NCBI GenBank assembly: GCA_951812955.1
Contig: OX638340.1
Span: 2,400,001-2,464,000 of the forward strand
Source: an uncultured Gemmatimonadota bacterium
GTDB taxonomy: Bacteria > JAAXHH01
DNA length: 64,000 nucleotides
Direction: 5' to 3'
Positions 11,900-53,884 of this stretch are shown here, piece by piece. Every line of letters begins with the position of its first letter. The stretch's first letter is position 1. Made by a program: the position numbers and the translations under genes. The notes below the pieces were generated by a model. That model was not told the DNA's origin and did no database searches. It saw only the letters and a list, made by a program, of their open reading frames with translations.

Positions 11900-12059
11900 G
11901 CCTCAGTGTCCTTGCCTATTCCGACGGCCGGCTTCGTTAAAGTCCTCACGGACCGGCCGGTTTTGATCAAACTTCGGTCAGGCCCCGGTCAAGCCTCACG
12001 GATCTTCCCGGCCGGCACGTGAGCGGTCAGGCCCCGGTCAAGCCTCGTTCAGGCCCTGG

Positions 12060-26907: not shown

Positions 26908-26945
26908 CTGATTGCAAGTTTTTAACCGTCCAAGTGCAAGTTTGA
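26908..26945. repeat. about 38-bp element GGCTGATTGCAAGTTTnnAAyCGTCCAAGTGCAAGTT, copy overlapping the 3' end of the ATPase gene
   Basis: direct repeat of the element found upstream of the same gene at 28351-28433. Confidence 0.8.
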
Positions 26946-28319
26946 GGCGGTTTCTACCGGATTCTCCCAAAGCAAACTGACCGGCGCAACCGTCAGTCCT
27001 TCTCCAAAACTCCAACACTTTTCTCCGTCATAAAGCACCACGCCGCCGGCGAACCGGTCACCAGCTGCATCCTTCAGCTTGCGCAATCCGTGGAAATCCG
27101 AAGCGCGTACAGTACTTGACGCTTTCACTTCCACACCCGCAACGGCCATTGTCCCCTTCTCGATCACCAGGTCTACCTCAACCTTGTCCTTGTCCCGATA
27201 GTGATAAAATGTCAGCGTATCATCAGACCAACTGGCCTGTCGTTTTAACTCTTGAAACACGAATGATTCCAGATACTGTCCGAATAGATCCCGATCTTTC
27301 TTCAGCGCCTCGCTGCTCGCACCGATCACGGCGCATCCGATTCCCGTGTCGCAGACATGCAGCTTCGGTGCCTTGACCATTCTCTTCAATCGATTGTTCT
27401 GCCATGCGGGTATCCGTTCCAGCAGGAAGATTCTTTCAAGGATCTCTACATACTTACCTATGGTCGGTCGGCTGAGGCTAAAGGTGGAGGACATGTCCTG
27501 AAGATTGTACAACCTTGCTGTTTGAGTCGCTGCAACAGAGAGGAGTCGAATCATGGCTCCATGATCACTTATCTTGGCTATGTCACGTACATCCCTTTGA
27601 AGTTGTGTTTCAACATAGTTCAGGTACCAATTGCGTCTTCTACCCTCGGTTGAGCGAGCCAACGCGGCCGGGAATCCTCCAGCTACGATTCTATCGGCCA
27701 GTCGGTCCGACGCTCCGGCCAACTCTGGCGCTTTAAGATCACCAGAAAACAATCGATCAAGAAAGGTGGGATGCTGACCCGACAGTTCACACTGGGCCAG
27801 TGGGTGGAGTCTGATGATCTCCAGCCGCCCCGCAAGAGAATCCGATACTCGTGGCACGAGCAGTACCTGCGATGATCCCGTTAGCAGAAACCGGCCGGGA
27901 ATCCGATCACGGTCGATCGCCATTTTCAAAGCGGTGAATATGGAAGGCGCCCGCTGAACCTCATCCAGAATTACTCTGCCAGGCAAATCGTTAACGAAGC
28001 CTATTGGATCTCTTTCCGCGGCTTCGCGTGCTGTTTCATCGTCAAAGGTAATGTAGTTGGCACCGCCCCATTCAATGACCGTTTCGCCGCCCCATACTAT
28101 GGTTTGCGACGGATTCATCATTCTCGCCAAGGTGGTCTTGCCACACTGTCTCGGACCGTGGATCAGGACGGCCGGCGAATCGGCAAGCGCCTCTTTCAGT
28201 GGGTGTTCCGCGTAACGCGGATAGAGTTTGGTCTCGGATGTCATTTTCGTAACGGGCTTTCGAGTAAGTTCCGTTCCTGATCGCATTGTACTGAGTGGTA
28301 CGTTCAATTCTTCTACCAT
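26922..28319 (-). CDS. AAA+ ATPase of the COG1373 / DUF4143 family
   Basis: 465 aa; Walker A AVLIHGPRQCGKTTLARM, Walker B VILDEVQ, C-terminal DUF4143-like region. Confidence 0.75.
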   Translation of the reverse strand: MVEELNVPLSTMRSGTELTRKPVTKMTSETKLYPRYAEHPLKEALADSPAVLIHGPRQCGKTTLARMMNPSQTIVWGGETVIEWGGANYITFDDETAREAAERDPIGFVNDLPGRVILDEVQRAPSIFTALKMAIDRDRIPGRFLLTGSSQVLLVPRVSDSLAGRLEIIRLHPLAQCELSGQHPTFLDRLFSGDLKAPELAGASDRLADRIVAGGFPAALARSTEGRRRNWYLNYVETQLQRDVRDIAKISDHGAMIRLLSVAATQTARLYNLQDMSSTFSLSRPTIGKYVEILERIFLLERIPAWQNNRLKRMVKAPKLHVCDTGIGCAVIGASSEALKKDRDLFGQYLESFVFQELKRQASWSDDTLTFYHYRDKDKVEVDLVIEKGTMAVAGVEVKASSTVRASDFHGLRKLKDAAGDRFAGGVVLYDGEKCWSFGEGLTVAPVSLLWENPVETASNLHLDG

Positions 28320-34775: not shown

Positions 34776-34896
34776 ATGTCAAGCGGTTTTTAGGAAAATT
34801 GGGGATTGGGAACGGGTGAGAACCATTTCACTAACCGCAAGTTCTTTTCAAAATTACAGCTTGCTTATTGATACAATTAACGTTAAATATATTAAT

Positions 34897-36057
34897 ATGA
34901 TGGCAGATTTTTACATTCCTCAAGCGCAACTCACCACACTCGCCCACCTGGTTACACCGGGCAAAGTCGTTGTGGTATACGGACCCAGAAGGGTGGGCAA
35001 GACCACGCTGATCAAGCGTTACATGCGAGAACACGACCCCGACGCCCTGCTCGTAACGGGGGAGGACATCGTGGTCAGGGAGTACCTCGAGAGTCAGTCC
35101 CTGGCCAAATTGACGTCCTTCGTCGGCCGTCGCCGTACACTGATCATCGACGAAGCTCAGCATATCCGGCAAATCGGGCTGAATCTCAAGCTGATCGCCG
35201 ACCACGTCGAAGGGCTTAAGATCATCACCACAGGCTCGTCCTCCTTCGACCTGGCCAATCAGACTGGCGAGCCCCTGACCGGCCGCAAGTATACCCTGCT
35301 GCTTCTGCCACTGGCCCAGTTGGAACTCCAGGAAACCGAATCCGCGCACCAGACACGAGCCCATCTCGAACTTCGGATGATTTACGGGTCGTATCCCGAA
35401 GTCGTCCTCATGGAGTCAAACGAAGACCGGCAACTCTATATCAAGGAACTGATCGCTTCCTATCTATTCAGGGACATACTCCAGCTGGAGGGCATACGCC
35501 ATGCGGACAAGCTGCTCAGGCTGCTGCAACTGGTCGCCTTCCAGATCGGACGCGAGGTATCGACTTCCGAACTGGGCACCCAGTTGGGCATGAAAGCGAA
35601 CACCGTGGATCGATATCTAGACTTACTTGAGAAATCCTATATCCTATACAGCCGCCGCGGGTTCAGCCGCAATCTGCGTAAGGAAATAACCAAGAGCCGA
35701 CGGTATTACTTCTACGACAACGGCATCAGGAACGGGTTGATCAACAACTTCAACCCACTTGCAATGCGGGATGACGCGGGGGAGTTGTGGGAAAGCTACA
35801 TCCTGGTGGAACGATTGAAGCACAACCTCTACAACGGACACCTGGCGGAAAGCTACTTCTGGCGTACATACGATCGCCAGGAAATCGACCTAGTTGAGGA
35901 GTGGGGAGGTCAACTACTTGCCACGGAAATGAAATGGACCGCCAGATCACACCGGGCGCCCGGCGCCTGGCGCAAGGCCTATCCCGAAAGTTCGTTCCAG
36001 GTTGTTCATCCTGAAAACTATCTCAGTTTTATTTCTGAATCACCGGCCGCACCCTAA
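34897..36057 (+). CDS. second AAA+ ATPase of the COG1373 / DUF4143 family
   Basis: start MMADFYIP; Walker A VVVYGPRRVGKTTLIKRYM, Walker B LIIDEAQ; paralog of 26922-28319. Confidence 0.75.
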   Translation: MMADFYIPQAQLTTLAHLVTPGKVVVVYGPRRVGKTTLIKRYMREHDPDALLVTGEDIVVREYLESQSLAKLTSFVGRRRTLIIDEAQHIRQIGLNLKLIADHVEGLKIITTGSSSFDLANQTGEPLTGRKYTLLLLPLAQLELQETESAHQTRAHLELRMIYGSYPEVVLMESNEDRQLYIKELIASYLFRDILQLEGIRHADKLLRLLQLVAFQIGREVSTSELGTQLGMKANTVDRYLDLLEKSYILYSRRGFSRNLRKEITKSRRYYFYDNGIRNGLINNFNPLAMRDDAGELWESYILVERLKHNLYNGHLAESYFWRTYDRQEIDLVEEWGGQLLATEMKWTARSHRAPGAWRKAYPESSFQVVHPENYLSFISESPAAP

Positions 36058-36796: not shown

Positions 36797-37429
36797 GTGT
36801 TTTCAATGAGCAGTATGGCCGCTAAAATCATGCGTCGGGTGTCCGCTCATCCCACCGGAAAGTGGGTTTGTACACCGAAGGATTTCCTGGACTTCGGGAG
36901 CAGGGAGGCCATTGACCAGGCTCTGTCGCGCCTGGCCAGATCCGATCGGCTGCGGCGCATAGGCCACGGCCTCTATGACAGGCCCAGGTTCAGCAACGTA
37001 CTGAGACGTCCTGCGCCGGTTGATCTGGATGCTGCAGTTAGCGCACTGGCAAGGAGGGACGGCGTTCAGATCCTGCCGGATGGCATGGCCTCTGCGAATC
37101 AGTTGGGACTCACGAACGCCGTACCGGCCAAAGTCAGCTTCGTAACAGATGGCTACTCCAGGACACTTAAAATTGAAGGAAGGACGGTCCGTTTTCGACA
37201 TGCGAGCCCGAGCGTTATGAAATGGGCCGGAAGACCGTCAGCTTCGGTGGTTCAGGCGTTGCGATGGCTTGGTCCCGCCGCGGCCGAGGACGCACGGGTC
37301 CTGTCGACCTTGAGCCGAACCCTCTCGGAAGAAGTGAAGGTCGATTTATTAAGAAACATACGCGATCTGCCGGGATGGGTATTGCCGCTGTTGCGAGAAA
37401 TAACCACTGAACATCACGACGCAATATGA
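36797..37429 (+). CDS. AbiEi-like / DUF6088 antitoxin (type IV TA system)
   Basis: 210 aa; wHTH-like N-terminus VCTPKDFLDFGSREAIDQALSRLARSDRLRRIGHGLY resembling AbiEi_4/DUF6088. Confidence 0.5.
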   Translation: MFSMSSMAAKIMRRVSAHPTGKWVCTPKDFLDFGSREAIDQALSRLARSDRLRRIGHGLYDRPRFSNVLRRPAPVDLDAAVSALARRDGVQILPDGMASANQLGLTNAVPAKVSFVTDGYSRTLKIEGRTVRFRHASPSVMKWAGRPSASVVQALRWLGPAAAEDARVLSTLSRTLSEEVKVDLLRNIRDLPGWVLPLLREITTEHHDAI

Positions 37430-37436
37430 AAATGGA

Positions 37437-38174
37437 TTGCGTATCTTTCCTCTCCCTTCCTGTCCAGGACAGACGGGACCTCTTCGAGTCAGCGGCAAAC
37501 TGAAAACCGCACTTTCGAGACGAATCGACGAGATCGTCGAAGGAGGTCTTGTCATTCCAGATGAAAGCGACGTCGACGGCCAGACGCTTCTCGTGGAGTA
37601 CCCTACACTTTACCCTGGAGACAGTGTCGCCTACGTGGCGCCACGGGTACGAATCGAGGCAGGGGCGAGATCGGCGCTGGATCCCAACCTGACCCGTACC
37701 ATCAAACCATTCATCGCGGATGAGGTGCGAGACTTGTCTTTGGCAGTGGAAAACATCCGCGTTATCGCACCAGATCGCACGCTCTGGGAGAAGCTGTTGA
37801 TCCTGCATGGGTTGTACTGCGGATATCGGGACGCACAGCGTCTACCGGCAGACAGAGATCGGATATCCCGCCACTACTACGATGTTGCCATGATAACGGA
37901 GACCGAGTCCGGCAGGGCCGCTCTATCCAACCTTGAATTGATGGATTCAGTTCGTAAACACAACCTTATTGCGTTTCGACAGGCCTGGAAGAAGTTCGAA
38001 GAGGCCGTACCTGGACGGGTGAAACTGGTTCCTCAGTTGGAACTGCACATGCTGATCGAGCGGGACTATGAAGCCATGCAGGACATGATCCTGGGTGACG
38101 TCCCGAATTTCAGATGGATCGTGGACCAATTGATGCATGCCGAAGCCATTGTCAATGGAACTACGAGAAGTTAA
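37437..38174 (+). CDS. AbiEii/DUF1814-like nucleotidyltransferase toxin, possibly N-terminally shortened
   Basis: 245 aa; C-terminal SRHYYDVAMI resembles the RhxYD motif of AbiEii; N-terminal GGTAL...RxSxDxD NTase motif only weakly present (EGGLVIPDESDVD). Confidence 0.4.
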   Translation: MRIFPLPSCPGQTGPLRVSGKLKTALSRRIDEIVEGGLVIPDESDVDGQTLLVEYPTLYPGDSVAYVAPRVRIEAGARSALDPNLTRTIKPFIADEVRDLSLAVENIRVIAPDRTLWEKLLILHGLYCGYRDAQRLPADRDRISRHYYDVAMITETESGRAALSNLELMDSVRKHNLIAFRQAWKKFEEAVPGRVKLVPQLELHMLIERDYEAMQDMILGDVPNFRWIVDQLMHAEAIVNGTTRS

Positions 38175-40106: not shown

Positions 40107-41315
40107 TCACTGTTCGATCCTCGAAGGCGCGTCGTGAAACGCCAGCAGGTCGGGATAGTCGTATGCGTAATGTTCCGGCCGGACCAGTACCCCGTCCCGG
40201 TACAGCGCGGAGACGATGCGGATGGCCTCGGCCAGGAGGCGGTCGGTCTCGCGGATCATCTCATCGCCCTTTGCGAGTTCCGCCCGCACGAGGTTTTCCG
40301 AATGGCACTGCTCGCAGATGCCGGTCATGCGGTCGCGCTCCCGCTGCCAGTCCTCCTGGGTCAGCCGGGCCACGTCGGCCTGCCTGACCACATCCAGTCG
40401 CGGGGTGGGGTTGCCGTCCGGGTCCAGCACGCCAAGTGCCTGGAGGATCGTTGCCCGGTCCTCCGCCCACTGCGGGTCTTCCGGCATGGGAAGTCGGACG
40501 GCCAGGAAACCCCAGGCGGTCCGGACGCCGTGATCTCCCTCGGGCATGTGGCAGGTCTGGCACGTAGGCGCCTGGGCATGCTCGGGCAGCGTGCCGTTCT
40601 GCTTGAGCAGATGCCGCACGCCATGCTTGGAGGACGAGTACATTTCCCACTGGGGATGATCGAACCCCATGTGGCACGTCCTGCACGCCTGGGGCTCCCG
40701 GGCCTCCTTCACAGAAAAGAGATGGCGGGTATGACATACGTCGCAGGACGACAGGCCGAAAAGCCCGTCCTGCGCCTTGATCGTCTTAATCTCCTCTTCG
40801 CTCTTGAGGCCGATGCGGTGGCATCCGCCGCAGCCCTTCATACCCTCAGTCAGGGCCATGGGCAGGAAGTGGGTCGTCGGCATGGCGTTCATGCTGGTCC
40901 AGGCAAGGGCGTGCTTGCCCCCCGCGAACTGTTCCACCTGGATCGGATGGCACGTGGCGCACACGTCCGGGGTCGCGACGCCGGCCAGGGCCACGTCCTC
41001 CTCCGTGCGGTGATCGCCGCCGTGACACATGACGCAGTCCACGCCGTTCGTGCTGTGGGTGCTGAGTTCCCAGTCAATTACGATGCCGGGCGTGGCATCC
41101 TGGTGGCAGGCCACGCAGTCGGACGTGGCCCGCGGTGGATCGGCGGAGGGACCGCAGGCGGCAAGGGACAGCAGGAAGAATGATACGATGAAGAAGGATA
41201 CGATGTTGTTAACAAGGATGGCACGGCATACGCGGTACCTGGTTTTAGCAAGGAAGCGACTCCTGGAAAGCAGAGACGTCAGACTACCGGATTGCCGGGC
41301 CATCTTGTACCTCAT
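40107..41315 (-). CDS. octaheme c-type cytochrome, lipoprotein (HAO/ONR-family-like multiheme oxidoreductase)
   Basis: 402 aa; signal with lipobox LAACG; eight CxxCH motifs (CVACH, CVMCH, CATCH, CGGCH, CDVCH, CRTCH, CQTCH, CEQCH); followed on same strand by NrfH-like gene. Confidence 0.75.
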   Translation of the reverse strand: MRYKMARQSGSLTSLLSRSRFLAKTRYRVCRAILVNNIVSFFIVSFFLLSLAACGPSADPPRATSDCVACHQDATPGIVIDWELSTHSTNGVDCVMCHGGDHRTEEDVALAGVATPDVCATCHPIQVEQFAGGKHALAWTSMNAMPTTHFLPMALTEGMKGCGGCHRIGLKSEEEIKTIKAQDGLFGLSSCDVCHTRHLFSVKEAREPQACRTCHMGFDHPQWEMYSSSKHGVRHLLKQNGTLPEHAQAPTCQTCHMPEGDHGVRTAWGFLAVRLPMPEDPQWAEDRATILQALGVLDPDGNPTPRLDVVRQADVARLTQEDWQRERDRMTGICEQCHSENLVRAELAKGDEMIRETDRLLAEAIRIVSALYRDGVLVRPEHYAYDYPDLLAFHDAPSRIEQ

Positions 41316-42791: not shown

Positions 42792-43733
42792 ATGCATGGC
42801 GCCGAGAACGATATTCCATTTGAAGGCGAGGGGACTCATACAGGCGGGCCGGACCGGGCTGTTGACGATACGATCCGGCTGAACTGGCGCGAGAAGCTGG
42901 TTGAAGTCGGCCTGATGATGGTAATGTTCACGTGCGGTATGCTGATCGGAATGTTCGTCATCATAGCTTCTCTGCTTACCATGCGAAGTACATTCGAGCA
43001 GTTGGCCCCGGGATTCATGGAAGTAGGTTCGATTCCGCTCATCATTCTGGTCGTCGTGGCCGTGATCGTCGGGAATATCTGTTCGTTCAGCTGCGCTCCC
43101 TACCTCATACGTCTCTTCTTTCGGGGCTACGAGTTGAAGGACGAGCGGATCGACCGCGCTTTGGATCACCTGATTTCCGTGACCGGGATGGAAATCAGGG
43201 CCGAACGGATCTACGCCATAAAGGGCAGGACGGCCAACGCCGTCGTGGCCGGCCTCTTCCGGAAGGGTCAGTACATCTTCTTTACCAACAGGCTTCTGGA
43301 GAGAATGAGAGAAGGAGAGATCATGGCGATCCTGGCGCACGAACTGGCCCATGTGCGGCACCGGCACATGCCGAGGATGATGCTGGGCATCGTGCTATGG
43401 ACCCTCGGCATCCAGGTATTCTTCTGGCTGATTGGCTTCCAGGTTTACTTCGAATCGATCGAAGAATCCTGGAAAATGTGGGTGTATGGCGGAATAAATG
43501 CCTTGAACTTCTACCTGCTTGTTTTCCTCGTTCTGTTCCCGCAGTCGAGGCGTCACGAATACGAGGCGGATGAGGCCGCCGCCCGGTGGGTGGGCATAAG
43601 CCAGTACAAGCAGGCCCTTTACCGGTTGCATCAATTGAATGACCAACTGAAACCACCGAGGAAGATCCTGTCGAAGCTAAGTACCCATCCGACGCTTCAG
43701 CAGAGGCTGGAGCGGGTGGGGAATCTGGAATAA
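42792..43733 (+). CDS. M48-family (HtpX/Ste24-like) zinc metallopeptidase, membrane-embedded
   Basis: 313 aa; HELAHVRHRH (HExxH) and downstream EYEADEAA third ligand; 4 to 5 TM helices. Confidence 0.85.
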   Translation: MHGAENDIPFEGEGTHTGGPDRAVDDTIRLNWREKLVEVGLMMVMFTCGMLIGMFVIIASLLTMRSTFEQLAPGFMEVGSIPLIILVVVAVIVGNICSFSCAPYLIRLFFRGYELKDERIDRALDHLISVTGMEIRAERIYAIKGRTANAVVAGLFRKGQYIFFTNRLLERMREGEIMAILAHELAHVRHRHMPRMMLGIVLWTLGIQVFFWLIGFQVYFESIEESWKMWVYGGINALNFYLLVFLVLFPQSRRHEYEADEAAARWVGISQYKQALYRLHQLNDQLKPPRKILSKLSTHPTLQQRLERVGNLE

Positions 43734-43799
43734 CGTGTGACTGGTGTTTCAGCGTGCTATCCGCGTTTGTAAGGAAGGTTACAGGACGTGTATACGGAC

Positions 43800-45023
43800 T
43801 CACTCCATGTTCATCGCATCCACCGGGCTCAGCTGCGAAGCCTTCAAGGCGGGATATATTCCGGCACATAGACCTATTGCCAGTGAGATCGCCAGCGACA
43901 AGAGGATATTGGAAACCGACGTACCAGTCGTGAAAGTGAGATCCAACACCTGATTCAATACGAACGAGAAAACCGATCCAAGGCCCAGTCCCAGCAATAT
44001 CCCCAGTAACCCCCCTAAAGCACTGATACCTATGGCTTCCAGCGTGAATTGATTCACGATATCGACGTGTCTGGCTCCTACTGACTTCCTAATACCTATT
44101 TCCCGCCTTCGTTCCGTTACGGAGACCAGCATCATATTCATGATCCCGATTCCACCCACCATCAGTGAGATGCCCGCCACGGCGGCAATCGCCGACTTAA
44201 CGGCGTTAATCACACCTCCTATCTGGTCCATTGCGTTTTTTCCGCTGACTATGTCAAATCCGGGCGCATCACCATGGATTGTCTTCAAGGCTGCCTCAAT
44301 GTCATCCACCGCAATTTCCATGACACTCGAATCCACTACCTTGATGGTCAAAAGGTCGAAGCCTTCATGGCCAAGCATCCTTTTCTGGACCGTCGTTATC
44401 GGAACGAAGACCCGGTTGCCCCAACTTTCATTGAAAACAATCTTTGGCTTCATGACGCCGATCACGGCAAATCTCTGACCATTCAGTTTCACTTCCTTGC
44501 CGACCGGATTGGTATCGTCAAACAATCTAGCGGCCAGTTCATCGCCCAGTACACATACTTTTCGCCAGCGCTTGACGTCGCGGTCGGTAATGAATCGACC
44601 CGTGGAAACCGACCACTGGTACATCTCCGGAAATGAAGGCGTCGTGCCGTACAACATCCCTCCATGCGACGTTTTTGCGAATCTGAGATCTACATTCAAT
44701 GTCGCGGCGGGGACCAATTGGCGCACGGCGCTCGATCTTCTCCCGATTTCCAGCATATCCTGCCAGACAAGATGCTCGTAATCGGATACAGGCATCCAAC
44801 TTCCTTCCCTATTTTCGTATCTCGATGGACTCACCCACACCATGGAGCCGCCACGTACGGATTCGAATTCATCCATCACCATGTCGTGAAGCCCCTCTCC
44901 AATCACGATGATGCCTGTTACAGCGCCAATGCCGACCGCAATCCCCAGCAGCGTCAGGACCGAACGCAGCCTGTAGTGAACGAGATTGGTAAACACCGTG
45001 TGGACATGGTGCGCTAAAGACAT
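43800..45023 (-). CDS. MacB/FtsX-type ABC permease with periplasmic domain (no NBD)
   Basis: 407 aa; N-terminal TM, large periplasmic domain, three C-terminal TM helices (FtsX fold); no adjacent ATPase gene. Confidence 0.8.
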
Positions 45024-45045
45024 AGACGACAGGGTCCGTAGAGGA

Positions 45046-46260
45046 CTATTGGTGTTTCGATTTCAGCGCGATATGAACCGCTCTTGCATCCGCTGCGATG
45101 TGTGCTCCAGGTTCGATACCGGACAGAATCTCCACATATTCAGTCGATTCAATTCCGATCTCGACCATGGTGGATTCCAGGTATTCTTCCGGACATTTCG
45201 ACATACCAGGGTCCATCGAAGTACAACGATAAACCACGTACGGCTTGCCGGGCACCGACCCAGTAGATGCTGTTTCCTTCTGTTCAGTGGCTATACCTAC
45301 GTAATCACCCATTTCCATGACCGAAGATGCAGGCGCAAGCAGCGAGCCTTCATTCTTCTCCAACACGATGTCGATATCGCAGGACATTCCCTGCTGCAAA
45401 TCCAGCGATGGATTCGATATCACGATTTCGGCATCGAACGTTACAAGCGCACTCCCGGGTTTCCGCACACCGATAGGCGCCAACCGCTCAACATGCCCGC
45501 TGTACAATGTGTCCGGGTAGGCATCGACACGAATCCGTACTTCCTGTCCAGGCCTGACCCTGCCTGCGTCAATTTCCCCAATGGCCGATTTGACGATCAT
45601 TCTGTCCGGATCGCCAATATGAAACATCTCCGTACCGCCGGTATACGAGGAGGTGCCCGATGCTACGACCTCGCCCGTTTCCACCATGCGGGCAACGACG
45701 ATGCCGTTCAAGGGAGACAGGATCCTCACGGCATCATGCGTTCTGTTGGAATCCACCTCAACATTAACCTTCAGTTCAAGTATTTTGAGTTCGAGTTCCG
45801 CCATGTTGAGATTATGATTGGCCTTGGTTTTTTCAATCCTTGCCTTGTCGAATTCCGCAGACGATATCAGGGATCTCTCATGTAATTCACGCTTTCTTTT
45901 AAAGGAGATCTCTTGTTCTGACAGATCTATTCGAGCGCCTTCAACTCTGGCGCGCTGCCGGGACAACTGAAGGGACTGAGACGGATCCGGCTCTATCACG
46001 GCAAGGACATCCCCCTTTGATACCGTATCCCCTACATCGGCGTGAATATGCCTGATTTCCCCGGATATGGTGGGTTTGACCATGACGGTCCTGACAAACT
46101 GGATCGTACCTGTCTCCACCAGGATATCGGAGATCGTTCCATGTTGAACCTGGAGTATTGGGAACGAGGCAACCCGGACCGTGGAACTGTAAACAAAGTA
46201 CAGTAGAACGGCTACGAGAATGCATGCCGATACGCAGACAATGACTATGCGTTTTTTCAT
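45046..46260 (-). CDS. HlyD-family membrane-fusion (periplasmic adaptor) protein
   Basis: 404 aa; single N-terminal TM, coiled-coil region ([20 protein letters not shown]...), beta-barrel/lipoyl-like segments. Confidence 0.75.
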
Positions 46261-46281
46261 GTCAGCGGTGATTTCCAGGAA

Positions 46282-47013
46282 TTACACGTAAACGGTACCA
46301 AGGTTCTCCATGGTCCTGCGAATGACAATCCACATGCACCACACTAGTCCCAACGCGAACCATGTGAGTATAACCGATCCCTGGAAAGTCCGTGCAAGAC
46401 CCAACCCCAGCAGGTAAAGAAACCAAATACCGAAAAAGTCGACACCTGTAAGGAACAGGCCCGGGAGGGTTTCGAGGTCTGCATCGTCGAGCAACACACC
46501 AGGATGGATAGCCGGATCTAGCGACCCCCAAAGCAGAACCAGCGTGGTTTTGACGACTGTTTCGGGTACGAGGACAAGCAAGGCGTAGCCGGTAATCGGC
46601 AGAACCTTGTTGTACGGCAGGAGCTTACCGAAGATCAATTCTCCGCTGTGTTTCCCTACAACCGACCACGCGACAAGCATAAGGCAGACGCTGGCCGGCA
46701 TGATTAAAAGACCGGCGAGTTGCCTATGGTCGAATTTCGAAGCCTCGCGCAGGATAATAGATTGCTGAAACATACTGAGATTCGAATAGGACTGGAGTTC
46801 CATTTCGATCAACGCCCGTTCCGTATCCAGCGCAACCGGCAAAGTTACTATCCCGGCGATCAGTACGACCGACACGATAACGATCAGAATCAGGATCGAC
46901 TCAGAGGCGGACTGTTCAGTTTCAAGATCCGCAAATGCCCTCCCGGGACTGTAATAGACTCGTAGCCATCGCCTGGCATATCTTCCCATATCTATTGACG
47001 CGCTCAAGGACAT
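46282..47013 (-). CDS. multi-pass membrane protein, possibly Yip1/DUF1282-like
   Basis: 243 aa; 5 predicted TM helices; N-terminal YYSPGRAFADLE...ILILIVIVSVVLIAG resembles Yip1-domain start; 10-bp overlap with upstream gene. Confidence 0.4.
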   Translation of the reverse strand: MSLSASIDMGRYARRWLRVYYSPGRAFADLETEQSASESILILIVIVSVVLIAGIVTLPVALDTERALIEMELQSYSNLSMFQQSIILREASKFDHRQLAGLLIMPASVCLMLVAWSVVGKHSGELIFGKLLPYNKVLPITGYALLVLVPETVVKTTLVLLWGSLDPAIHPGVLLDDADLETLPGLFLTGVDFFGIWFLYLLGLGLARTFQGSVILTWFALGLVWCMWIVIRRTMENLGTVYV

Positions 47014-48224
47014 AGATCTCCCATGATGACCAGATGGTAGTAGCTGTGTCCGCCACCGGACCAGAATGGACTATTCCAGGGCCAGAACCTCCACCAGATT
47101 GGTTTGGAACGGGTATATGCACCTTGGCGAAAACTCTCCAGGAAGGTACTGATGTGATGTACCGTGCTCGTGGAAAGATGCCTGCCGACTCTCTTGGGAT
47201 GGGATTCCACGCCGAGGTAAGAACGAATCATAAGGCTGTGTTCATCGATTGGAAGCGCATCGACATTCTCGACGTACCAATTGAACACGTAGTAGAAGTG
47301 GTTTATGAGGAAGTACTCAACGTTAGAAACATAGAAAACGGAAATGCTCGAGTCGTGGGCTTCAGCGTAAGAACCGATGGCCCTCAACGTCTTCTCGCCC
47401 GCGAAGTTTCCCACGACGGGAATGATCAGGTTCCTGTGATGCAGGCGCTTCACGAACCTGAATGTATCTTCGGTAAACAAGAAACTGGCGAATTCTCCCT
47501 CCACAGTCGTACCTGTCATCAGGTCTTTGAACGAAGGATAGGATAACCCGTTGCCCAGTCGTGTTTCAGCGTATGTAATCGAAAGCTGTTTTTCGTAAAA
47601 CGATCGGTATATGTAGCGCATCCTGTCGAGATCGTACCGATCTTTGATCCCATACATGCCTACTTCCCGACTGAGCCGCCTCCAATTCTGTTTAAAAAAC
47701 AGTGAGTCGGCCGTGGTCGACGATTCGATGTATTCCAGGACTTCCGTAACGGAAGCGGTTTTATCCGGTAATCCGTTCAAAGCCAATCCGACTTCCCGGT
47801 TATGTCTACTGAACAGCAGCATCAGGAAGGATGTCCGGTCCCGGGCCAGGGTAAAAAGGGCTTTGTAGAGGAGATGCTGAAGCAGGTTTTCACGTCGGAT
47901 GTCGACGACAAATGCGATTTCCGGTCTCGTAGCAGCGATGTAGGAGAAGTTCTGTTCCGTACCGACGCCGATATAGACGCCGCCGCGTTTTCCCAGTTCG
48001 ATTACGGTCGGGACAACGTGCAGGTAGGACGATTCATTGGAAACGAAGTTGTCGCCGGGAAAGTGACCGGGATCTTCGGAGAACGCAGTCATGATCCTGG
48101 CGAATTCGGACAGCGCAAGGGAGTCCGGCAACGCCCCGTAAGATGGGAAGCGCAGGTCAGTCAGCGCGCCGATGGTCAGTAGCAGTATGACAACTCGAAT
48201 CAACTTCATCGGTTTTACATCCAT
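47004..48224 (-). CDS. secreted hypothetical protein (406 aa) with Rossmann-like GxGxxxN motif
   Basis: signal peptide MKLIRVVILLLTIGALTDL; GGVYIGVGTEQNF...VVDIRREN looks like a nucleotide-binding beta-alpha-beta start; no family confidently recognised. Confidence 0.5.
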   Translation of the reverse strand: MDVKPMKLIRVVILLLTIGALTDLRFPSYGALPDSLALSEFARIMTAFSEDPGHFPGDNFVSNESSYLHVVPTVIELGKRGGVYIGVGTEQNFSYIAATRPEIAFVVDIRRENLLQHLLYKALFTLARDRTSFLMLLFSRHNREVGLALNGLPDKTASVTEVLEYIESSTTADSLFFKQNWRRLSREVGMYGIKDRYDLDRMRYIYRSFYEKQLSITYAETRLGNGLSYPSFKDLMTGTTVEGEFASFLFTEDTFRFVKRLHHRNLIIPVVGNFAGEKTLRAIGSYAEAHDSSISVFYVSNVEYFLINHFYYVFNWYVENVDALPIDEHSLMIRSYLGVESHPKRVGRHLSTSTVHHISTFLESFRQGAYTRSKPIWWRFWPWNSPFWSGGGHSYYHLVIMGDLCP

Positions 48225-48244
48225 TCCATCTGCATTTGGTTCGT

Positions 48245-49192
48245 CTATTGCGCGTCCAACCTTGACACGCGGTCGAGACGGTTCTGCATCGTGGGGTGGG
48301 TCAGAAGTACTCTAACAAATCTCGGTGGTGGCTTTAAATTGTCATTGACTTGATGAAGACGGTAGAGCGCCCGTTTGTATTGCTCCGTGCCCACCCATTT
48401 TGCCGCCGTAGCATCTGCTTCGTATTCGTTACGCCTCGATAGCGGGTAAATGACCAGAAACATGAGAAGCCACACGTTCACGGCATTTAAAAGCCCGTAC
48501 GTCCACATTTTAAAAGACTCATCCATTGCATCGACATATGCACTGAAATCTAGCAGATACAGGAAAGCCTGCATCCCGCAGACCCACATAAATGTAGCCA
48601 ACTGCATCTTGGGAAGATGCCTGTGACGAACATGGGCCAATTCGTGGGCGAATATTGCCAAAATCTCCTCTTCGTTCGCTTTCGCCAGAAGTTTGTCCGT
48701 AAAGAAGATGTACCTGTTTTTGCGGAAAAGCCCAGTTACCATCGCGTTGGCAGTCCTGCTCTTGATGGTGTACAGGGTTTCTGCCGCAATGTTCATATCG
48801 ACGGACGATATCAGCTTCCCGACTGACCGATCCAGGCGATCGTCCCGTAACTCGTATCCACGGAAGATGAGACGTATCAGATATGGAGAACACAACCATG
48901 CACAGGCGTTCCCTACGGTTGCCGACAGGATGACCAGCAACACAATCGTTAAGGAACCTTGGTCCAATAGACCCGGAACTCCCTGAACAATCATGTCATC
49001 CGCGGTTAACAGAATGCTTAAGAACACGAATACCGCGATCAATATGCCCACCAGGGTCACACTCATGTTCAACCCGATTTCGACCAGTCTGTCGCGCCAG
49101 GTCAACCGGATTGGTTCATCTTTAATCGATGAAGCGCCGCCGGCTACTTCATTTATACGGTGTGTAGGTTCGACCATTATTTCCTTCTTCAA
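48245..49192 (-). CDS. M48-family zinc metallopeptidase, paralog of 42792-43733
   Basis: 315 aa; HELAHVRHRH and EYEADATAA; collinear similarity to the other copy over the whole length (IRLTWRDRLVEIGL / IRLNWREKLVEVGL, ... LTHPTMQNRLDRV / STHPTLQQRLERV). Confidence 0.85.
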   Translation of the reverse strand: MKKEIMVEPTHRINEVAGGASSIKDEPIRLTWRDRLVEIGLNMSVTLVGILIAVFVFLSILLTADDMIVQGVPGLLDQGSLTIVLLVILSATVGNACAWLCSPYLIRLIFRGYELRDDRLDRSVGKLISSVDMNIAAETLYTIKSRTANAMVTGLFRKNRYIFFTDKLLAKANEEEILAIFAHELAHVRHRHLPKMQLATFMWVCGMQAFLYLLDFSAYVDAMDESFKMWTYGLLNAVNVWLLMFLVIYPLSRRNEYEADATAAKWVGTEQYKRALYRLHQVNDNLKPPPRFVRVLLTHPTMQNRLDRVSRLDAQ

Positions 49193-49199
49193 ATCAGCG

Positions 49200-49850
49200 T
49201 TATGACATAACGGCTTGTACCAGGCCGTTTAGCGCGACGTATGCCAGGATCACGCCGACTGCTTTGAACCTGGGCATCAAGCAGACCCTGTGCACCGCTT
49301 CGATGGCAAAAGCGACCACCAGGGTCAAAGCAATATACCGACCGTATCGAATCCACTTAAGCAACCCGATATCCTGCATCTTCGTGATCTCGCCGGGCAA
49401 TTGATCGATCGTGGCCAGGTTCGACAGTCCGACATAGACCATCTGGTCTGAAAACGCAAGCATGAGAACGACCGCCATGATCGAATACACTGTAACCGGG
49501 GTGTATGCGACACCCAGCCATCCAAACAGCGCGCGATGACGACGTCTACTGTTCAATAGCGCAACAACGATCATTACAAACAGCCAACCGAACACGAAAA
49601 TCACGATTTCGCCCAATGTGACGCCCAATATCATGGTTATGAACATAACTGAGAATAACTGTGCATATGTTTCGGTAAGATGATCCGGTATTTGTCCTGC
49701 AACTGACCTGAAAGTCAGAAAAAGTACGATCCCGTTCATAAGCAAGTATATGACAAACATGCCGATGCCCGTCGAGAGCGGTTCGGTTACACTGATTGAT
49801 ACCAGCCTGTCGGATGCCCTGCGTGGAATTTCCATTTTCTGTCCGTTCAA
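49200..49850 (-). CDS. multi-pass membrane protein, possibly Yip1-like
   Basis: 216 aa; 5 hydrophobic helices; 4-bp overlap with upstream gene. Confidence 0.4.
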   Translation of the reverse strand: MNGQKMEIPRRASDRLVSISVTEPLSTGIGMFVIYLLMNGIVLFLTFRSVAGQIPDHLTETYAQLFSVMFITMILGVTLGEIVIFVFGWLFVMIVVALLNSRRRHRALFGWLGVAYTPVTVYSIMAVVLMLAFSDQMVYVGLSNLATIDQLPGEITKMQDIGLLKWIRYGRYIALTLVVAFAIEAVHRVCLMPRFKAVGVILAYVALNGLVQAVMS

Positions 49851-50518
49851 TTGATTTTGTTCGCTATTTGTCCAGTGACAAAGGTTTCTATAATCGAAGC
49901 CACCGTGATCAGAAGGAATCCGGTGACGAGTCTGCGTACGTTCAAGGCCAACCTATCCGAATCTATGAGCCATGTATCGAACTTGAGTTTTTGGCAAAAG
50001 AGGACCAGACCTTCGCATCCCACAGCGCCGAAAAACACAAACCCCGCCAACTCAATCACGCCATGGGGTAGAATCAAAGCGGCTATGTGGTATATCGAAG
50101 CACCGGAATCAACCGCAGAAAGCGTAGACCATGCCACGATAGTTCCTGTCCAGCCCAATATCACAACACTGACCAATCCAAAGGACAGAAGGCCCAATAG
50201 TATTTTCATGGAAACGAGGAAATTGTTGCCAATAATGAAACGCCATTCATCCCCACCGTCCAAAAAGGGACGTGAATCCAGCATGAGGGTGGAGCTACCC
50301 GGATCTGTTGGTTTATTCTCAATCATATCCAGGGGCATTGCCGCTCCAACACCCAAGCCGACGATGACAGAAGCAAAGGAAATTAAAATGGGTAGTTTGC
50401 TTGGTTTGCGCGTTGACATAGATCCCACACTAGGTATCATCCATAAATTCCGAGGAAAGGATGGAGGCCATTTTCGGCCTCCATCCATCGTACTTACCAG
50501 CTTGTTAAATTCCAGCAC
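49847..50518 (-). CDS. SpoIIM / DUF95-family membrane protein
   Basis: 223 aa; LPHGVIELAGFVFFGAVG matches the conserved HGxxE(L/I)xA motif of DUF95/SpoIIM. Confidence 0.55.
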   Translation of the reverse strand: MLEFNKLVSTMDGGRKWPPSFPRNLWMIPSVGSMSTRKPSKLPILISFASVIVGLGVGAAMPLDMIENKPTDPGSSTLMLDSRPFLDGGDEWRFIIGNNFLVSMKILLGLLSFGLVSVVILGWTGTIVAWSTLSAVDSGASIYHIAALILPHGVIELAGFVFFGAVGCEGLVLFCQKLKFDTWLIDSDRLALNVRRLVTGFLLITVASIIETFVTGQIANKIN

Positions 50519-50789
50519 CTATAAACACGGCGCCAACACCGGTTCCAATGCCAACGCTGGCCACGAGACCATAGCCGGCTGCTGTCAGCCAACCAATTGT
50601 TCCACCACCAGCCAATCCACCCAGTGCAACACCGCCAACCAGGGACGCATTGGAACCCCACAAGCAGTAAGCGAGGTTCGGCGACGCTGCGATGCCCGGT
50701 GTTTCAGCCAGCGGCGAACTGGCCGTTGAGTTGACGCTCGCGCCTGCGATCAGGGCGAACATGAACACTGAGAGAATGAGTTTTTTCAT
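50505..50789 (-). CDS. small secreted Gly/Ala-rich hydrophobic peptide, first gene of the island operon
   Basis: start MKKLILSVFMFALIAGASVNS (signal peptide); C-terminal GGVALGGLAGGGTIGWLTAAGYGLVASVGIGTGVGAVFIGAGI with serial GxxxG motifs. Confidence 0.45.
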   Translation of the reverse strand: MKKLILSVFMFALIAGASVNSTASSPLAETPGIAASPNLAYCLWGSNASLVGGVALGGLAGGGTIGWLTAAGYGLVASVGIGTGVGAVFIGAGI

Positions 50790-51110
50790 AATGATTTGTT
50801 CCCCTCGATTTTGGTATATATCGAACCAATGTGGTTTATCCTTCGAAAGACTCTGTAATGCCGTTAACCTCCTTTCCTCTCTCAAATTAGATTCCATCCG
50901 CCGTTCTCATTCGATGCGACGTCATTCTCTGCCCAGGTACCAGGAAACTCGGTTGCAGGTCTCGGAATGCGCAGTTCCGAGAGAAAGCGTCGATCTCTTA
51001 ACGGGGACTCGACCTAATGTTAAAACTGAATCCAGTAACTGTGACCGCAGCGATCTATCACAATTAGTCTCCGTGAATCCCCGGTTCTCGTAGACAATCT
51101 CTATTTCCTG

Positions 51111-51143
51111 CAATAAAAAAGCCCGGCGATCGTACCGCCGGGC
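51111..51143 (-). terminator. rho-independent terminator downstream of the 51275-53884 gene
   Basis: on minus strand: stem GCCCGGCG-loop-CGCCGGGC followed by TTTTTTAT. Confidence 0.55.
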
Positions 51144-51274
51144 GTTCACATATCCCATTCGCATTCCGATAAACCCAGTATTTTACCTCATCCCCTCCTT
51201 AGCCTCAATCTCGTCTCGTATTCTTTTTAAATCGCTGGATATTGTCTTACAGACTACGGCAGGATTCTTCTTTA

Positions 51275-53884
51275 CTACTCCCCGTCCCCATCCCCCACCG
51301 CATCCAGCAGCGCTTCCCGCGTCATGCCATCGGGAGGCGTGTTTAGGCCCGATTCCTCGCCCGGGTCGGCGACGAGCCAGATGCCGCGCTCGAGGGCGTA
51401 GCCATCTCGTTCGGAGGCCTTTTGGAGGAGTTCCTGCAGGTCTTCGCCATCCATCAGGCCCAGCAGCCCGACGGGGATCACCCGGGCGGAGATTCCCCTT
51501 TCGCGCAGGAAGCCCGCGTACCAGTCGGGAGGACGTTCATAGGAGAACACGAGAAAGGGGCGTTCCGGCGTGCCGGCGCCCCGCCAGAATCCCAGGCGAT
51601 ACCAGTCCGGCCGCAGGGAGCGGACGAAGGCGCCGTGGCGCAGCCGGGGATTGATTTCGTCCATGGACTGCCGGTACAGCGTGCCGAGGCGCTCCGCGTT
51701 GGCTTCCTGGAGCTGGATATAGGTCTCGAGGTATCCCGACTTGAGCAGCCACTCGAACCGGTCTTCCCGGTCCAGTCCCATGAGCGACCTGAATTCGTCG
51801 CCGTGGTACAGACCGTTCCGGACGAGATGCCGGATGAAGTACCGGAAATGCAGGTCGTCGAAGACGTCGGTCGCGGCATAGGCGTGCCGCGGACGCGTGA
51901 TATGGGGATCCCAGTCGTGCACGATGGCCTGCGGGGCCCCCTGGAGGCGGCTGTGCCGGGCGATGGCGCGGGCCGGCTCAAAGAGGTGGCGGTTCAGGTA
52001 TGCCATGTCGAGCCGGGAAGGCAGGTCGACGTCCTCCCCGCGGGCGTTCAGGGCGGCTGCGTAGTCGCCGGTGATCTCGCGCTCGCGAGGGGCGCTGACG
52101 CCGGCGTACCAGGCCGTCGGTGTGCCGCCCACGCGGCTGAGGATGGGCATGGCCCACGATTCGAAACGCACGTCGCCCGTCACCGCCGCGCCCCCGGTGT
52201 AACTGGCAGCCGGCGCCACGGTCCAAAGGAAGTCCATCCCGAGGCCGGGCAACGTTCCGGCGAGTTCGGACACGTGTTCATGCCGGCGGGCGATGAAATC
52301 CCAGACGCCTCGAAGCGGTACGGCATCCGTCGTGCCGGTAGAGAGGCCGGCGTCTGCCGAGTCGCCGGGACTGGGGCGGGCTTCGGCGTCCACGCTGGCG
52401 TCTGAGCCGGAACCCGGACCAGCGCCCAGCTCTGCACTTGAACCTGTGCCGGCTCCGGAACCCGTGCCGTCGCCTGTGCCCGCGCCGTCGCCTGTGCCCG
52501 CGCCGGGTCCGTCATCCGGACCGGACGCCGCGCTGCTGAGCACCCGGACCCGTTCGGGCGCCGCCGTCCTTATGGATACGTTGTTGAGGGAGAAATCCGG
52601 TTTCCGGTTGCCGGGCATCTGGGCCGTGGCATAGTCGTGTTCGGGAGACCAGTCTCCGGGGGAATCGACCAGCGCGCGGACGTAGCTCGCGAGTCCGTCC
52701 ATAAAATCATCCAGTCCTTCGAGATCGGCTTCCCGGGGGCGGATGCCCAGGGGCGGCAAGGGCCGGTCGAGCCCGGATAGCACCTGGCGGTCAACGGCAA
52801 GGACGAATCCCTCGTTCAGCCGGCCGGTCCGTCCCGCGGCCGCTACCGCCATGCGGCCGAAGGTCTCCTCGTCGCCTCGCATGGTTTCCAGGTCTTCGGC
52901 CGACCCGATCTCTTCCCGGATCTCCCGGTCGGCGAAAGCGGCGGCGATGATCTCCACCGGAACGCCCACCAGCGCGTATTCGGATCCCCAGCGGTTTCCG
53001 GACATGCGCACGGTCAGCGTGTCCTTCGCATCTGAAACGCCTTCCACCCTGCCCTTGAATCTCGCCGCGGTCCAGTCCACCGGCACGAGCCGATCCCGGT
53101 TCCGGTACTGCAGGCTGGTCCGCAGCTCCTGGTCGCCGCGCAGCAGCAGTTCGACGTCTTCTCCCGCAATCGCGTCCGCGGGGGAGATACGCAAGGTACG
53201 CCGGACTACGCGGTATTCGGGTTCGGGTTCGGGTGCGGGTTCCGGTTCGATCTCCTCTCCAGGGTCCGGCGCTTGAGGTTCCACGAGCAGCGGCTCGGCA
53301 CCGTCGCCCACGAGCAGCCGGGTGCCGGCGCGGGCGGCCACGCTGCCGTCCATGCCCCGCCCGACCGGGTGGCCGTCGGCAATTTCGAAATAGACCACGG
53401 GGTTCAGGACTGGACTGGTTTCGTGGTCGGCGTTCAGCGCGTGCAGGTTGATGTTCAGACGGGCCAAGATCTCGTTGAACTGATACCGGTCGTGGACGCC
53501 GGGATTGACCTTCCTCCGCTCGCTGTAGGGCCCGTCGGAGGGCATCGCCAGCACGAGCACTTTACCCCGCGACACGAAGTTGATGACCAGGTCCACTTCC
53601 TGGATGCTCATGCCCGGATCGCCGCCGCCCAGAAGCACGATGGCGTCGTAGTCCCGGGCGTCCCGTTCGACCATGGCCGGATAATACGGCCGGTAGTCGA
53701 CGTCGAACCCCGCTTCCGAGAACGCCTGTATCATCCCGGTGTGCTCTTCCGGATAGGCCATGGCGTATTCGACGACGAGCAGGCGGGGATCGCCGTTCGG
53801 CCCGGCGGACGGCTCCTGCCTCGCGCTTGCGGAGTAATTGGGCGCCAGGAATACAATCAGGCAGACAATCAGTTTGATTCGCAT
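51275..53884 (-). CDS. large secreted protein (869 aa), N-terminal class-I glutamine-amidotransferase-like/ThuA-like fold suspected, Gly/Thr/Asp-rich linker, C-terminal domain unknown
   Basis: signal peptide MRIKLIVCLIVFLAPNYSASA; low-complexity GPGAGTGDGAGTGDGTGSGAGTGSS; no catalytic motif confidently recognised. Confidence 0.55.
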   Translation of the reverse strand: MRIKLIVCLIVFLAPNYSASARQEPSAGPNGDPRLLVVEYAMAYPEEHTGMIQAFSEAGFDVDYRPYYPAMVERDARDYDAIVLLGGGDPGMSIQEVDLVINFVSRGKVLVLAMPSDGPYSERRKVNPGVHDRYQFNEILARLNINLHALNADHETSPVLNPVVYFEIADGHPVGRGMDGSVAARAGTRLLVGDGAEPLLVEPQAPDPGEEIEPEPAPEPEPEYRVVRRTLRISPADAIAGEDVELLLRGDQELRTSLQYRNRDRLVPVDWTAARFKGRVEGVSDAKDTLTVRMSGNRWGSEYALVGVPVEIIAAAFADREIREEIGSAEDLETMRGDEETFGRMAVAAAGRTGRLNEGFVLAVDRQVLSGLDRPLPPLGIRPREADLEGLDDFMDGLASYVRALVDSPGDWSPEHDYATAQMPGNRKPDFSLNNVSIRTAAPERVRVLSSAASGPDDGPGAGTGDGAGTGDGTGSGAGTGSSAELGAGPGSGSDASVDAEARPSPGDSADAGLSTGTTDAVPLRGVWDFIARRHEHVSELAGTLPGLGMDFLWTVAPAASYTGGAAVTGDVRFESWAMPILSRVGGTPTAWYAGVSAPREREITGDYAAALNARGEDVDLPSRLDMAYLNRHLFEPARAIARHSRLQGAPQAIVHDWDPHITRPRHAYAATDVFDDLHFRYFIRHLVRNGLYHGDEFRSLMGLDREDRFEWLLKSGYLETYIQLQEANAERLGTLYRQSMDEINPRLRHGAFVRSLRPDWYRLGFWRGAGTPERPFLVFSYERPPDWYAGFLRERGISARVIPVGLLGLMDGEDLQELLQKASERDGYALERGIWLVADPGEESGLNTPPDGMTREALLDAVGDGDGE

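Follow-up and report, generated by a model that had tools for sequence, protein, structure and literature searches.

What is the function of an operon that starts with a small glycine-rich peptide gene and continues with seven genes for envelope proteins? This question is raised by a 64,000-nucleotide (nt) stretch of contig OX638340.1 (assembly GCA_951812955.1, positions 2,400,001 to 2,464,000) from an uncultured Gemmatimonadota bacterium, hereafter called the window. The window carries eight packed open reading frames (ORFs), all on the minus strand, at 43800–50789. Judged from its sequence, the operon is probably a bacteriocin-type locus for the production, maturation and self-protection of a ribosomal peptide, with an architecture matching that of circular (head-to-tail cyclized) bacteriocin clusters. 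Cyclization of the peptide core is a separate claim; it is possible, though somewhat doubtful. The mobile part is a sub-cassette of 2.4 kilobases (kb), not the whole operon.

The initial annotation had described eight minus-strand ORFs forming one operon of envelope proteins, and the layout was found as claimed. Two neighbouring pairs overlap, by 4 base pairs (bp) at 49847–49850 and by 10 bp at 47004–47013, and the remaining gaps are 7–22 bp. Every operon product is membrane or extracytoplasmic by hydropathy. The domain calls of the annotation also hold, with the upstream Yip1 protein below its cutoff at 21 bits. Lengths of proteins are given below in amino acids (aa), and the operon genes are as follows.

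50664–50789, minus strand: precursor gene, leader part (residues 1–42, MKKLILSVFMFALIAGASVNSTASSPLAETPGIAASPNLAYC), signal-peptide-like with a conserved ..PN.xYC motif
50505–50663, minus strand: precursor gene, predicted core (residues 43–94, LWGS...GAGI, 52 aa) and stop codon
49847–50518, minus strand: SpoIIM, a SpoIIM/DUF95-family membrane protein with five hydrophobic segments (PF01944, E 7.6e-14)
49200–49850, minus strand: Yip1a, a six-segment membrane protein (PF04893, 21 bits, under the cutoff of 28.6; transmembrane (TM) scan)
48245–49192, minus strand: M48a, an integral-membrane HtpX-like zinc metalloprotease (PF01435, 100 bits)
47004–48224, minus strand: DUF7790 protein with an N-terminal signal or anchor and a class-I methyltransferase-like Rossmann fold (126 bits)
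46282–47013, minus strand: Yip1b, positional equivalent of YknW and As-48E (PF04893, 30.4 bits, above cutoff)
45046–46260, minus strand: membrane-fusion protein (MFP), a periplasmic adaptor (HlyD/RND_mfp; TIGR01730 RND_mfp, 117 bits, above cutoff; MacA-like hits)
43800–45023, minus strand: MacB-type permease (MacB_PCD and FtsX, 4 TM) without an ATPase domain (PF12704, 140 bits; PF02687, 67 bits)

The precursor peptide and its candidate partners

The precursor consists of 94 aa from MKKLIL (50505–50789) and matched no Pfam or NCBIfam family, even at E ≤ 10. Alignments of 31–46 family members showed that residues 1–42 are near-invariant (MKKLILSVFMFALIAGASVNS, then ..PN.xYC). The residues M1, K2, K3, S7, A12, I14, A15, G16, P37 and C42 are invariant across the family. 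The mean column entropy was 0.62 bits in the leader versus 1.50 bits in the core. The cores of the family are 48–52 aa long and hypervariable, with 19–32% Gly, 14–30% Ala, 0–6 charged residues, 2–7 GxxxG motifs and up to 13 three-step glycine zippers. The core in the window has 32% Gly, zero charged residues and 6 GxxxG motifs, and its predicted mass is 4641.50 Da in the linear form and 4623.49 Da in the cyclic form.

The leader is probably cut after C42, as the alignments suggest. A lipoprotein reading of this conserved Cys was rejected: L-A-Y-C lies outside the lipobox consensus. The proposed cut coincides with the end of conservation and with a recombination breakpoint described below. It would place Tyr at −2, a near-invariant Leu at +1 and I, V, L, Y or A at the C-terminus. 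The published rules for circularization sites are a hydrophobic core position 1, a hydrophobic or aromatic C-terminus and an aromatic or charged residue near −1/−2 (PMC10028692). The predicted junction residues would fit these rules in all loci save L016 (relatives of the window locus carry L numbers), where His stands at +1.

The peptide family formed 48 clusters in a word-indexed search, and ORF length and leader are conserved across them. An exhaustive HMMER search of 1.84 billion representatives with the peptide profile returned just four true representative clusters, all from the operon's own lineage. Three long repetitive proteins that also matched the profile were rejected as spurious tandem-repeat translations.

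The SpoIIM gene lies directly downstream of the precursor gene, and its product matched PF01944 at 52.4 bits (cutoff 26.9) over profile positions 5–162 of 163. In public gene calls, the SpoIIM-like protein has 163 aa (e.g., P0205, the L001 call). The real start is probably further upstream, at ATG 50488, 50440 or 50419, because the 163-aa start removes a TM helix (KLPxLLS..G..G) that all cassette types retain. When distant syntenic clusters were sought with a SpoIIM profile, the search returned the own lineage, one Acidobacteria fragment and a weak Haloarcula match. Profile searches thus place both the SpoIIM subfamily and the peptide family in one lineage. The Acidobacteria fragment (L022, positions 1–1056 of the metagenome-assembled genome (MAG) contig JAGNMH010000680.1) encodes a partial SpoIIM and, after it, a protein of 220 aa that shares 26% identity with Yip1a (E 4e-18). 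No M48 or DUF7790 gene follows this pair in L022, and the contig end precludes seeing any precursor gene. The SpoIIM–Yip1a pair may be an older two-gene unit.

Yip1a has no detectable similarity to Yip1b and is a candidate immunity or maturation partner of the peptide. M48a is a candidate leader peptidase. Its HExxH motif is intact in 16/16 orthologues examined, and the regular expression E[YF]EAD matched 15/16, with no match in L009. The earlier proposal of the M48 protein as a candidate maturation or immunity protease is supported. In hydropathy plots, M48a has two TM segments before HExxH, a layout that resembles HtpX.

A second M48 gene lies beside the operon.

42792–43733, plus strand: M48b, a convergent paralogue of M48a (53% identity; G+C content at third codon positions (GC3) 0.73)

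M48b follows the species clades, not the cassette types, and evolves faster than its neighbours. It is missing at this position in L002/L015, L008 and L016. M48b is probably associated with the operon, yet outside both operon and cassette, and may serve as a reserve or general-purpose protease for processing or immunity.

An allelic cassette within a conserved operon

The initial annotation had proposed a search for co-occurrence of these genes in other genomes. This search showed that the gene set recurs as an operon and is restricted to one lineage. The DUF7790 protein has about 36 close relatives (60–92% identity), and the named records are labelled Gemmatimonadetes or Gemmatimonadota. A scan with one genome per species gave 15 loci from MAGs labelled Gemmatimonadetes, Gemmatimonadota, 'Candidatus Latescibacterota' or 'bacterium'. 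In the 12 loci of sufficient length, the eight genes stand in the same order and at the same site, with an 860-aa protein upstream and M48b, PEMT and cytochrome genes downstream. The low GC3 of the operon versus its flanks is retained in relatives at 92% and 70% identity. The most distant relative, L016, is a MetaBAT-binned MAG (ERR599008_bin.45) whose DUF7790 protein is 62% identical. Because site, order and low GC3 are shared by the relatives, the operon is old in the lineage and not a recent insertion. The recent horizontal acquisition of the whole island that had been implied earlier is not supported: the operon is found at the same site, with the same low GC3, down to 62–70% protein identity. 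A mobile-element reading was also rejected: no flanking direct repeat was seen (only chance-level short two-copy matches), no tRNA adjoins the operon, and the site is conserved. DUF7790 was tried as a marker of the system and rejected; its more remote homologues, in Acidobacteria and others at about 40% identity, stand alone in unrelated contexts.

Within the operon, two groups of genes behave differently. Between-species identities, calculated for 13 loci with L015 and L016 left out, were 66–97% for DUF7790, Yip1b, MFP, the MacB permease and the flanking genes. The peptide core, SpoIIM, Yip1a and M48a showed just 29–67% identity between many of the same species. For the core the mean was 50% and the minimum 29%. 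SpoIIM, Yip1a and M48a had identities of 40–67% in species pairs with flanks at 77–94%. Yip1a is the most variable gene (40–96%). The variable genes define the following element.

48230–50663, minus strand: hypervariable allelic cassette of about 2.4 kb with peptide core, SpoIIM, Yip1a and M48a; type A in the window

The conserved genes define three clades: clade I with the window, L001 and L018; clade II with L008, L007, L013 and L014; and clade III with L020, L011, L010, L012, L009 and L017. At least three deep cassette types, with about 40–60% identity between them, cut across these clades. Type A was found in the window, L001, L018, L019, L008 and L020, type B in L011 and L007, and type C in L010, L013, L012, L014, L009 and L017; L015 and L016 have separate forms. 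Several type C loci carry a second, distinct precursor gene in tandem. Yip1b follows the species clades, not the cassette types.

The pair L020 and L010, from one clade with different types, illustrates the pattern. Their identity is 88–92% in the 869-aa upstream protein, DUF7790, MFP and the MacB permease and 87% in Yip1b, versus 48% in SpoIIM, 41% in Yip1a and 67% in M48a. Sliding nucleotide identity was plotted for pairs of the same clade and different type. The identity was about 90–98% from the upstream gene across the intergenic region to ~140 nt into the peptide gene, about 40–58% from the peptide core to the 5′ third of M48a, 66–76% over the 3′ two thirds of M48a, and about 90% again at the start of DUF7790. 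The breakpoints are sharp, and the left recombination breakpoint lies at the leader/core junction. In the converse comparison of the window with L008 (other clade, same type), the cassette showed 80–92% nucleotide identity and the flanks 76–87%.

Core identity co-varied with that of SpoIIM (Spearman rho 0.56), Yip1a (0.60, the best co-variation) and M48a (0.37), versus |rho| ≤ 0.12 for the other genes. The peptide core, SpoIIM, Yip1a and M48a were thus shown to form one allelic cassette that is reshuffled among species. Frequency-dependent selection acting on toxin and immunity specificity would be expected to give such a trans-species polymorphism of the cassette. Upstream of the precursor gene, two further elements were located.

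50790–51120, minus strand: intergenic leader/promoter region, from sequence reading, downstream of a terminator-like hairpin
51121–51143: terminator-like hairpin, after the upstream 869-aa gene

The region 50790–51120 shows 88–98% nucleotide identity among same-clade relatives that differ in cassette type, and therefore lies outside the variable cassette.

Comparison with circular bacteriocin clusters and alternative readings

The gene combination had been thought not to be a described system. The literature contradicts this: SpoIIM/DUF95, Yip1, M48 and ATP-binding cassette (ABC) transporter parts with a precursor are documented for circular bacteriocins (PMC8659200, PMC8534725, bioRxiv 10.1101/2025.10.31.685828). 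A minimal cluster comprises a precursor, SpoIIM and a transporter; Yip1 is common in such clusters, notably beside a three-gene accessory ABC set; and in a few of them an M48 peptidase lies three genes downstream of the precursor, while multi-copy precursors also occur (PMC8659200). The altitudin S subgroup has a precursor, YIP1, SpoIIM, ABC and M48 (bioRxiv 10.1101/2025.10.31.685828), and the cerecyclin cluster has DUF95, YIP1 and the ABC transporter cycEFG (PMC8534725). Which enzymes carry out leader cleavage and ring closure in circular bacteriocins is still not known (PMC8659200, PMC10028692). The precursors surveyed come from Firmicutes (6,925), Actinobacteria (2) and Thermotogae (1) (PMC8534725). 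Within the library searched, no paper joins circular bacteriocins with the term stem Gemmatimonad. Gemmatimonadota is a Gram-negative phylum.

By published description rather than by sequence, the operon was compared with altitudin S of Bacillales and with the 'group 1' clusters of PMC8659200. They share a long-leader precursor, SpoIIM/DUF95, YIP1, ABC-transporter components, an M48 gene that adjoins the structural gene or lies three genes downstream of it, and occasional multiple precursors. In contrast to these Firmicutes systems, the host here is of Gram-negative type (labelled Gemmatimonadota or 'Latescibacterota'), the MFP and MacB permease come without an ATP-binding subunit, and DUF7790 and a second Yip1 are added. 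Altitudin S is long, cationic and five-helix, whereas the core here is 48–52 aa, uncharged and Gly-rich. Neutral, Gly/Ala-rich cores occur in circular bacteriocin subgroup ii (PMC8659200), which the core here appears to resemble.

The AS-48 cluster (as-48ABCC1DD1EFGH) was taken from the Enterococcus faecalis plasmid pPD1 for direct sequence comparison. The AS-48 leader (MVKENKFSKIFILMALSFLGLALFSASLQFLPIAH) is signal-peptide-like and hydrophobic, as is the leader here. As-48H is 30% identical to the window permease (E 1.5e-25), and As-48F matched the window MFP weakly (E 1e-3). As-48C, the DUF95 protein of AS-48, gave a weak but specific match to SpoIIM, with the LPHG.IEL motif in common. The AS-48 accessory set of membrane protein, MFP and permease (As-48E, F and H) thus has its counterpart in the operon. 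As-48B, the ATPases D and G and the 56-aa immunity protein D1 have none here, and AS-48 in turn is without M48, DUF7790 and a recognisable Yip1; As-48E did not match Yip1a. The AS-48 core is 70 aa long and cationic. Yip1b aligned over its full length with the NCBIfam family YknW_fam at E 4e-5, a sub-threshold match (23 bits versus a cutoff of 110).

Taken together, the window has a precursor with an N-terminal leader (residues 1–42) and a hydrophobic C-terminal core, a DUF95/SpoIIM gene next to it, and an MFP with a MacB_PCD/FtsX permease that answers to the transporter of PMC8659200. This match of the gene set and the leader/core anatomy support the bacteriocin-like module for peptide production, processing, export and immunity that the initial annotation had proposed. 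In such a module, the leader would target the precursor to the inner membrane, and M48a would remove the leader, probably after Tyr-Cys 41–42, so that the core would start at Leu43. Leader cleavage may precede translocation and not follow Sec export, because M48a has a layout like that of HtpX, an enzyme with a cytoplasmic active site. SpoIIM with Yip1a would mature and release the core, possibly cyclizing it, and/or give type-specific immunity. Yip1b, MFP and the MacB permease would form a pump like As-48EFGH or YknWXYZ that expels the peptide from the membrane or periplasm, serving both export and self-protection, and this pump would use an ATPase and an outer-membrane channel encoded elsewhere.

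Several observations weigh against this reading. One survey treats the ATP-binding protein as obligatory in circular bacteriocin clusters, and every cluster reported has one (PMC8534725). None was found here: no ABC nucleotide-binding domain (NBD; an ORF with Walker A and LSGGQ) occurs in the operon or within ±10 kb in 16/17 related loci. Of the four parts of a YknWXYZ/As-48EFGH-type transporter, three stand in the right order and the ATPase is absent. An MFP and MacB permease without an adjacent ATPase had already been noted, and the window indeed contains no MacB-type ATPase. The only ABC NBDs of the window are in two fused exporters (ABC_membrane and ABC_tran; 9611–11899, minus strand, 762 aa; 12060–14324, minus strand, 754 aa). 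These have core-like GC3 and belong to the type I exporters rather than to the partners of MacB. No As-48B-like protein is present. No small ORF for a dedicated hydrophobic immunity protein of about 50–60 aa was seen between the operon genes, where the gaps from SpoIIM to MacB are ≤ 22 bp or overlaps; no dedicated search of the peptide–SpoIIM gap was made. The similarity of As-48C to SpoIIM, over the LPHG.IEL segment, is just marginal (BLAST E 0.017, hhalign E 1.4e-3).

The peptide itself adds further points. The cores of 48–52 aa are shorter and far more Gly-rich than characterized circular bacteriocins, which have about 58–70 aa and fold into four or five helices (saposin-like). In L016 the core is 57 aa with His at +1. 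An AlphaFold2 model of the precursor had pLDDT 54 and pTM 0.21; helices were predicted, unreliably, and no confident helical bundle was obtained. L016 keeps peptide, SpoIIM, Yip1a, M48a, DUF7790 and Yip1b without MFP and MacB, and therefore the pump is a dispensable part. We infer both toxicity and cyclization.

The strongest alternative is a linear, Sec-exported glycine-zipper toxin of the Caulobacter CdzC/CdzD or class II bacteriocin type. It shares most of the bacteriocin-cluster reading and differs just on ring closure. We consider it rather unlikely, though the best of the alternatives. Signal peptidase and/or M48a would trim such a peptide, SpoIIM and Yip1a would be its type-specific immunity, and MFP–MacB with an outer-membrane channel would extrude it from the periplasm in the manner of MacAB-TolC. 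MacAB-TolC is implicated in enterotoxin secretion according to a citation within PMC4887032. The Caulobacter Cdz toxins are glycine-zipper proteins of 84–86 aa, in some cases two-peptide toxins, and their immunity protein is multi-TM (PMC5380434). Similarly, the core here has 2–7 GxxxG motifs, ≤ 13 three-step glycine zippers and few charges, and tandem peptide genes occur here too. Small peptides of 84–96 aa, sometimes with two paralogues, an MFP, a lineage-restricted distribution and an expected multi-pass membrane immunity function are common to CdzABCDI and the operon. The N-terminus also resembles a classical Sec signal, no known circular bacteriocin is as short as this core, and the absent ATPase is a further point for a linear product. 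However, no sequence similarity between the peptide and Cdz was detected, and nothing CdzI-like was seen, with no CdzI sequence compared. Cdz relies on an ABC transporter for type I secretion, with an RTX-like signal at the N-terminus, and is without SpoIIM, Yip1 and M48, whereas the operon here has glycine-zipper peptides and no such transporter. DUF95/SpoIIM, Yip1 and M48 beside a precursor are specific to circular bacteriocin clusters in the literature. In addition, the 21 strongly conserved residues between the signal-like segment and the core argue for dedicated processing beyond signal peptidase.

The bacteriocin reading could also be wrong altogether. The glycine-zipper protein might be a structural or regulatory subunit of a SpoIIM/Yip1a/M48a complex for envelope homeostasis or cell–cell or self recognition, with the cassette diversity driven by phage, host-immune or kin-recognition pressure. 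This is improbable. The membrane or extracytoplasmic location of all components would agree with it, as would an operon kept vertically at one locus in all 14 species-level relatives, unlike many sporadic bacteriocin islands, and the lack of a dedicated immunity gene and ATPase. The DUF7790 protein is related to Leptospira LipL40 (PDB 6ulo), and DUF7790/LipL40 relatives are envelope lipoproteins of unknown function. However, a conserved leader and variable core with a breakpoint at their junction would be typical of secreted peptides that are processed and not of a stable subunit, and the gene set matches bacteriocin clusters. PADLOC found no defence-system match, and its sole result was a generic LolE/FtsX TM-domain match for the permease. 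The confinement of the peptide family and SpoIIM subfamily to one lineage is atypical for housekeeping genes.

Very improbable is a purely defensive efflux system, in which a YknWXYZ-like pump and M48 would guard the cell from membrane-active peptides of foreign origin, with an incidental or regulatory role for the small ORF. YknWXYZ (Yip1, MFP, ATPase and MacB-type permease) does protect Bacillus from the endogenous SDP peptide (PMC4887032), and the Yip1-family protein, MFP and MacB-type permease here follow the order yknW-X-(Y)-Z. Differences from YknWXYZ are the missing YknY ATPase and the setting of the pump in a peptide-producing operon of a Gram-negative-type cell. Against the defensive reading, the peptide ORF keeps its length and leader across 48 clusters and co-varies with its three downstream genes, and L016 keeps the peptide and the following five genes without MFP and MacB.

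Genomic setting and biological meaning

The composition of the window was calculated as the initial annotation had recommended, and the atypical composition is real. The GC content was 0.46–0.55 over 43.75–51.25 kb and 0.65–0.72 over 51.25–53.5 kb (500-nt windows). The drop that had been estimated by eye therefore stands for the operon (about 0.50) and its right flank, but not for the left flank, which had been put above 60% and has just 0.52–0.60 over 41–43.7 kb. The GC3 of the eight operon genes was 0.50–0.63 versus 0.78–0.88 in the core genes of the window, and the shift is one of codon usage, beyond amino-acid content.

The window is a compositional mosaic. Further low-GC3 stretches lie at 1–6, 24–29 and 34–38 kb and contain accessory genes. 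One is a 1557-aa protein (1541–6214, plus strand, GC3 0.57) that contains numerous leucine-rich repeats as well as Big_2 Ig-like domains and matches Peptidase_M66 weakly; it resembles eukaryote-like repeat proteins common in host-associated bacteria. The others are two DUF4143/AAA_14 ATPases and a DUF6088 (AbiEi-like)/AbiEii toxin–antitoxin pair (26922–28319, minus strand; 34816–36057, plus strand; 36797–38174, plus strand; GC3 0.55–0.66). In this genome as a whole, low GC3 seems to be a mark of the accessory genes.

Cytochromes, PEMT and a histidine kinase are encoded next to the operon. Just past the PEMT gene are multi-haem cytochrome genes (Multi-haem_cyto/Cytochrome_C554, NapC/NirT-like; window 40107–41315, minus strand; L001 16897–18974), which are kept beside the operon in most relatives. 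The 869-aa protein (51275–53884, minus strand) has no family match and carries a low-complexity insert rich in Gly, Asp, Thr, Ser and Ala at about residues 450–520. Its gene is directly upstream of the operon in every relative reaching that far, and the insert region (about 52.3–52.5 kb) is poorly alignable between species. In L001, a 92%-identical relative, Yip1b is split by a frameshift into ORFs of 65 aa and 176 aa (11203–11927), which is either a pseudogene or a long-read assembly error.

An Rfam scan of the window gave no match. ARAGORN called a 94-nt tRNA-Glu(CTC) at 17625–17718 (plus strand), inside and antisense to a 1517-aa ORF (15798–20351). This call is probably a false positive, because Rfam finds no tRNA in the window. 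Exact-sequence look-ups with the window proteins returned no record.

The operon represents a known kind of gene set in a new phylum with an atypical parts list, and its allelic cassette structure is the most interesting result. Since just SpoIIM, Yip1a and M48 co-vary with the core, they may be the core-contacting machinery for maturation (cleavage, cyclization) and/or immunity. We tentatively suggest that the operon could be the first circular-bacteriocin-type system of peptides made on the ribosome and modified after translation (RiPPs) in a Gram-negative-type phylum (uncultured Gemmatimonadota, possibly sponge-associated), with these three proteins contacting the core. If this is true, a Gram-negative-type member would widen the circular bacteriocin class, by a system without a dedicated ATPase and with Gly-zipper-like cores, and the MFP/MacB module could carry the product across the outer membrane. 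The exchange of core, SpoIIM, Yip1 and M48 as one cassette offers a comparative handle on which proteins read the core. The polymorphism is a natural genetic experiment in which leader and exporter are constant, and it opens the roles of SpoIIM, Yip1 and M48 to experiment. The pattern suggests that strains of an uncultured and possibly symbiotic population antagonize or recognize one another.

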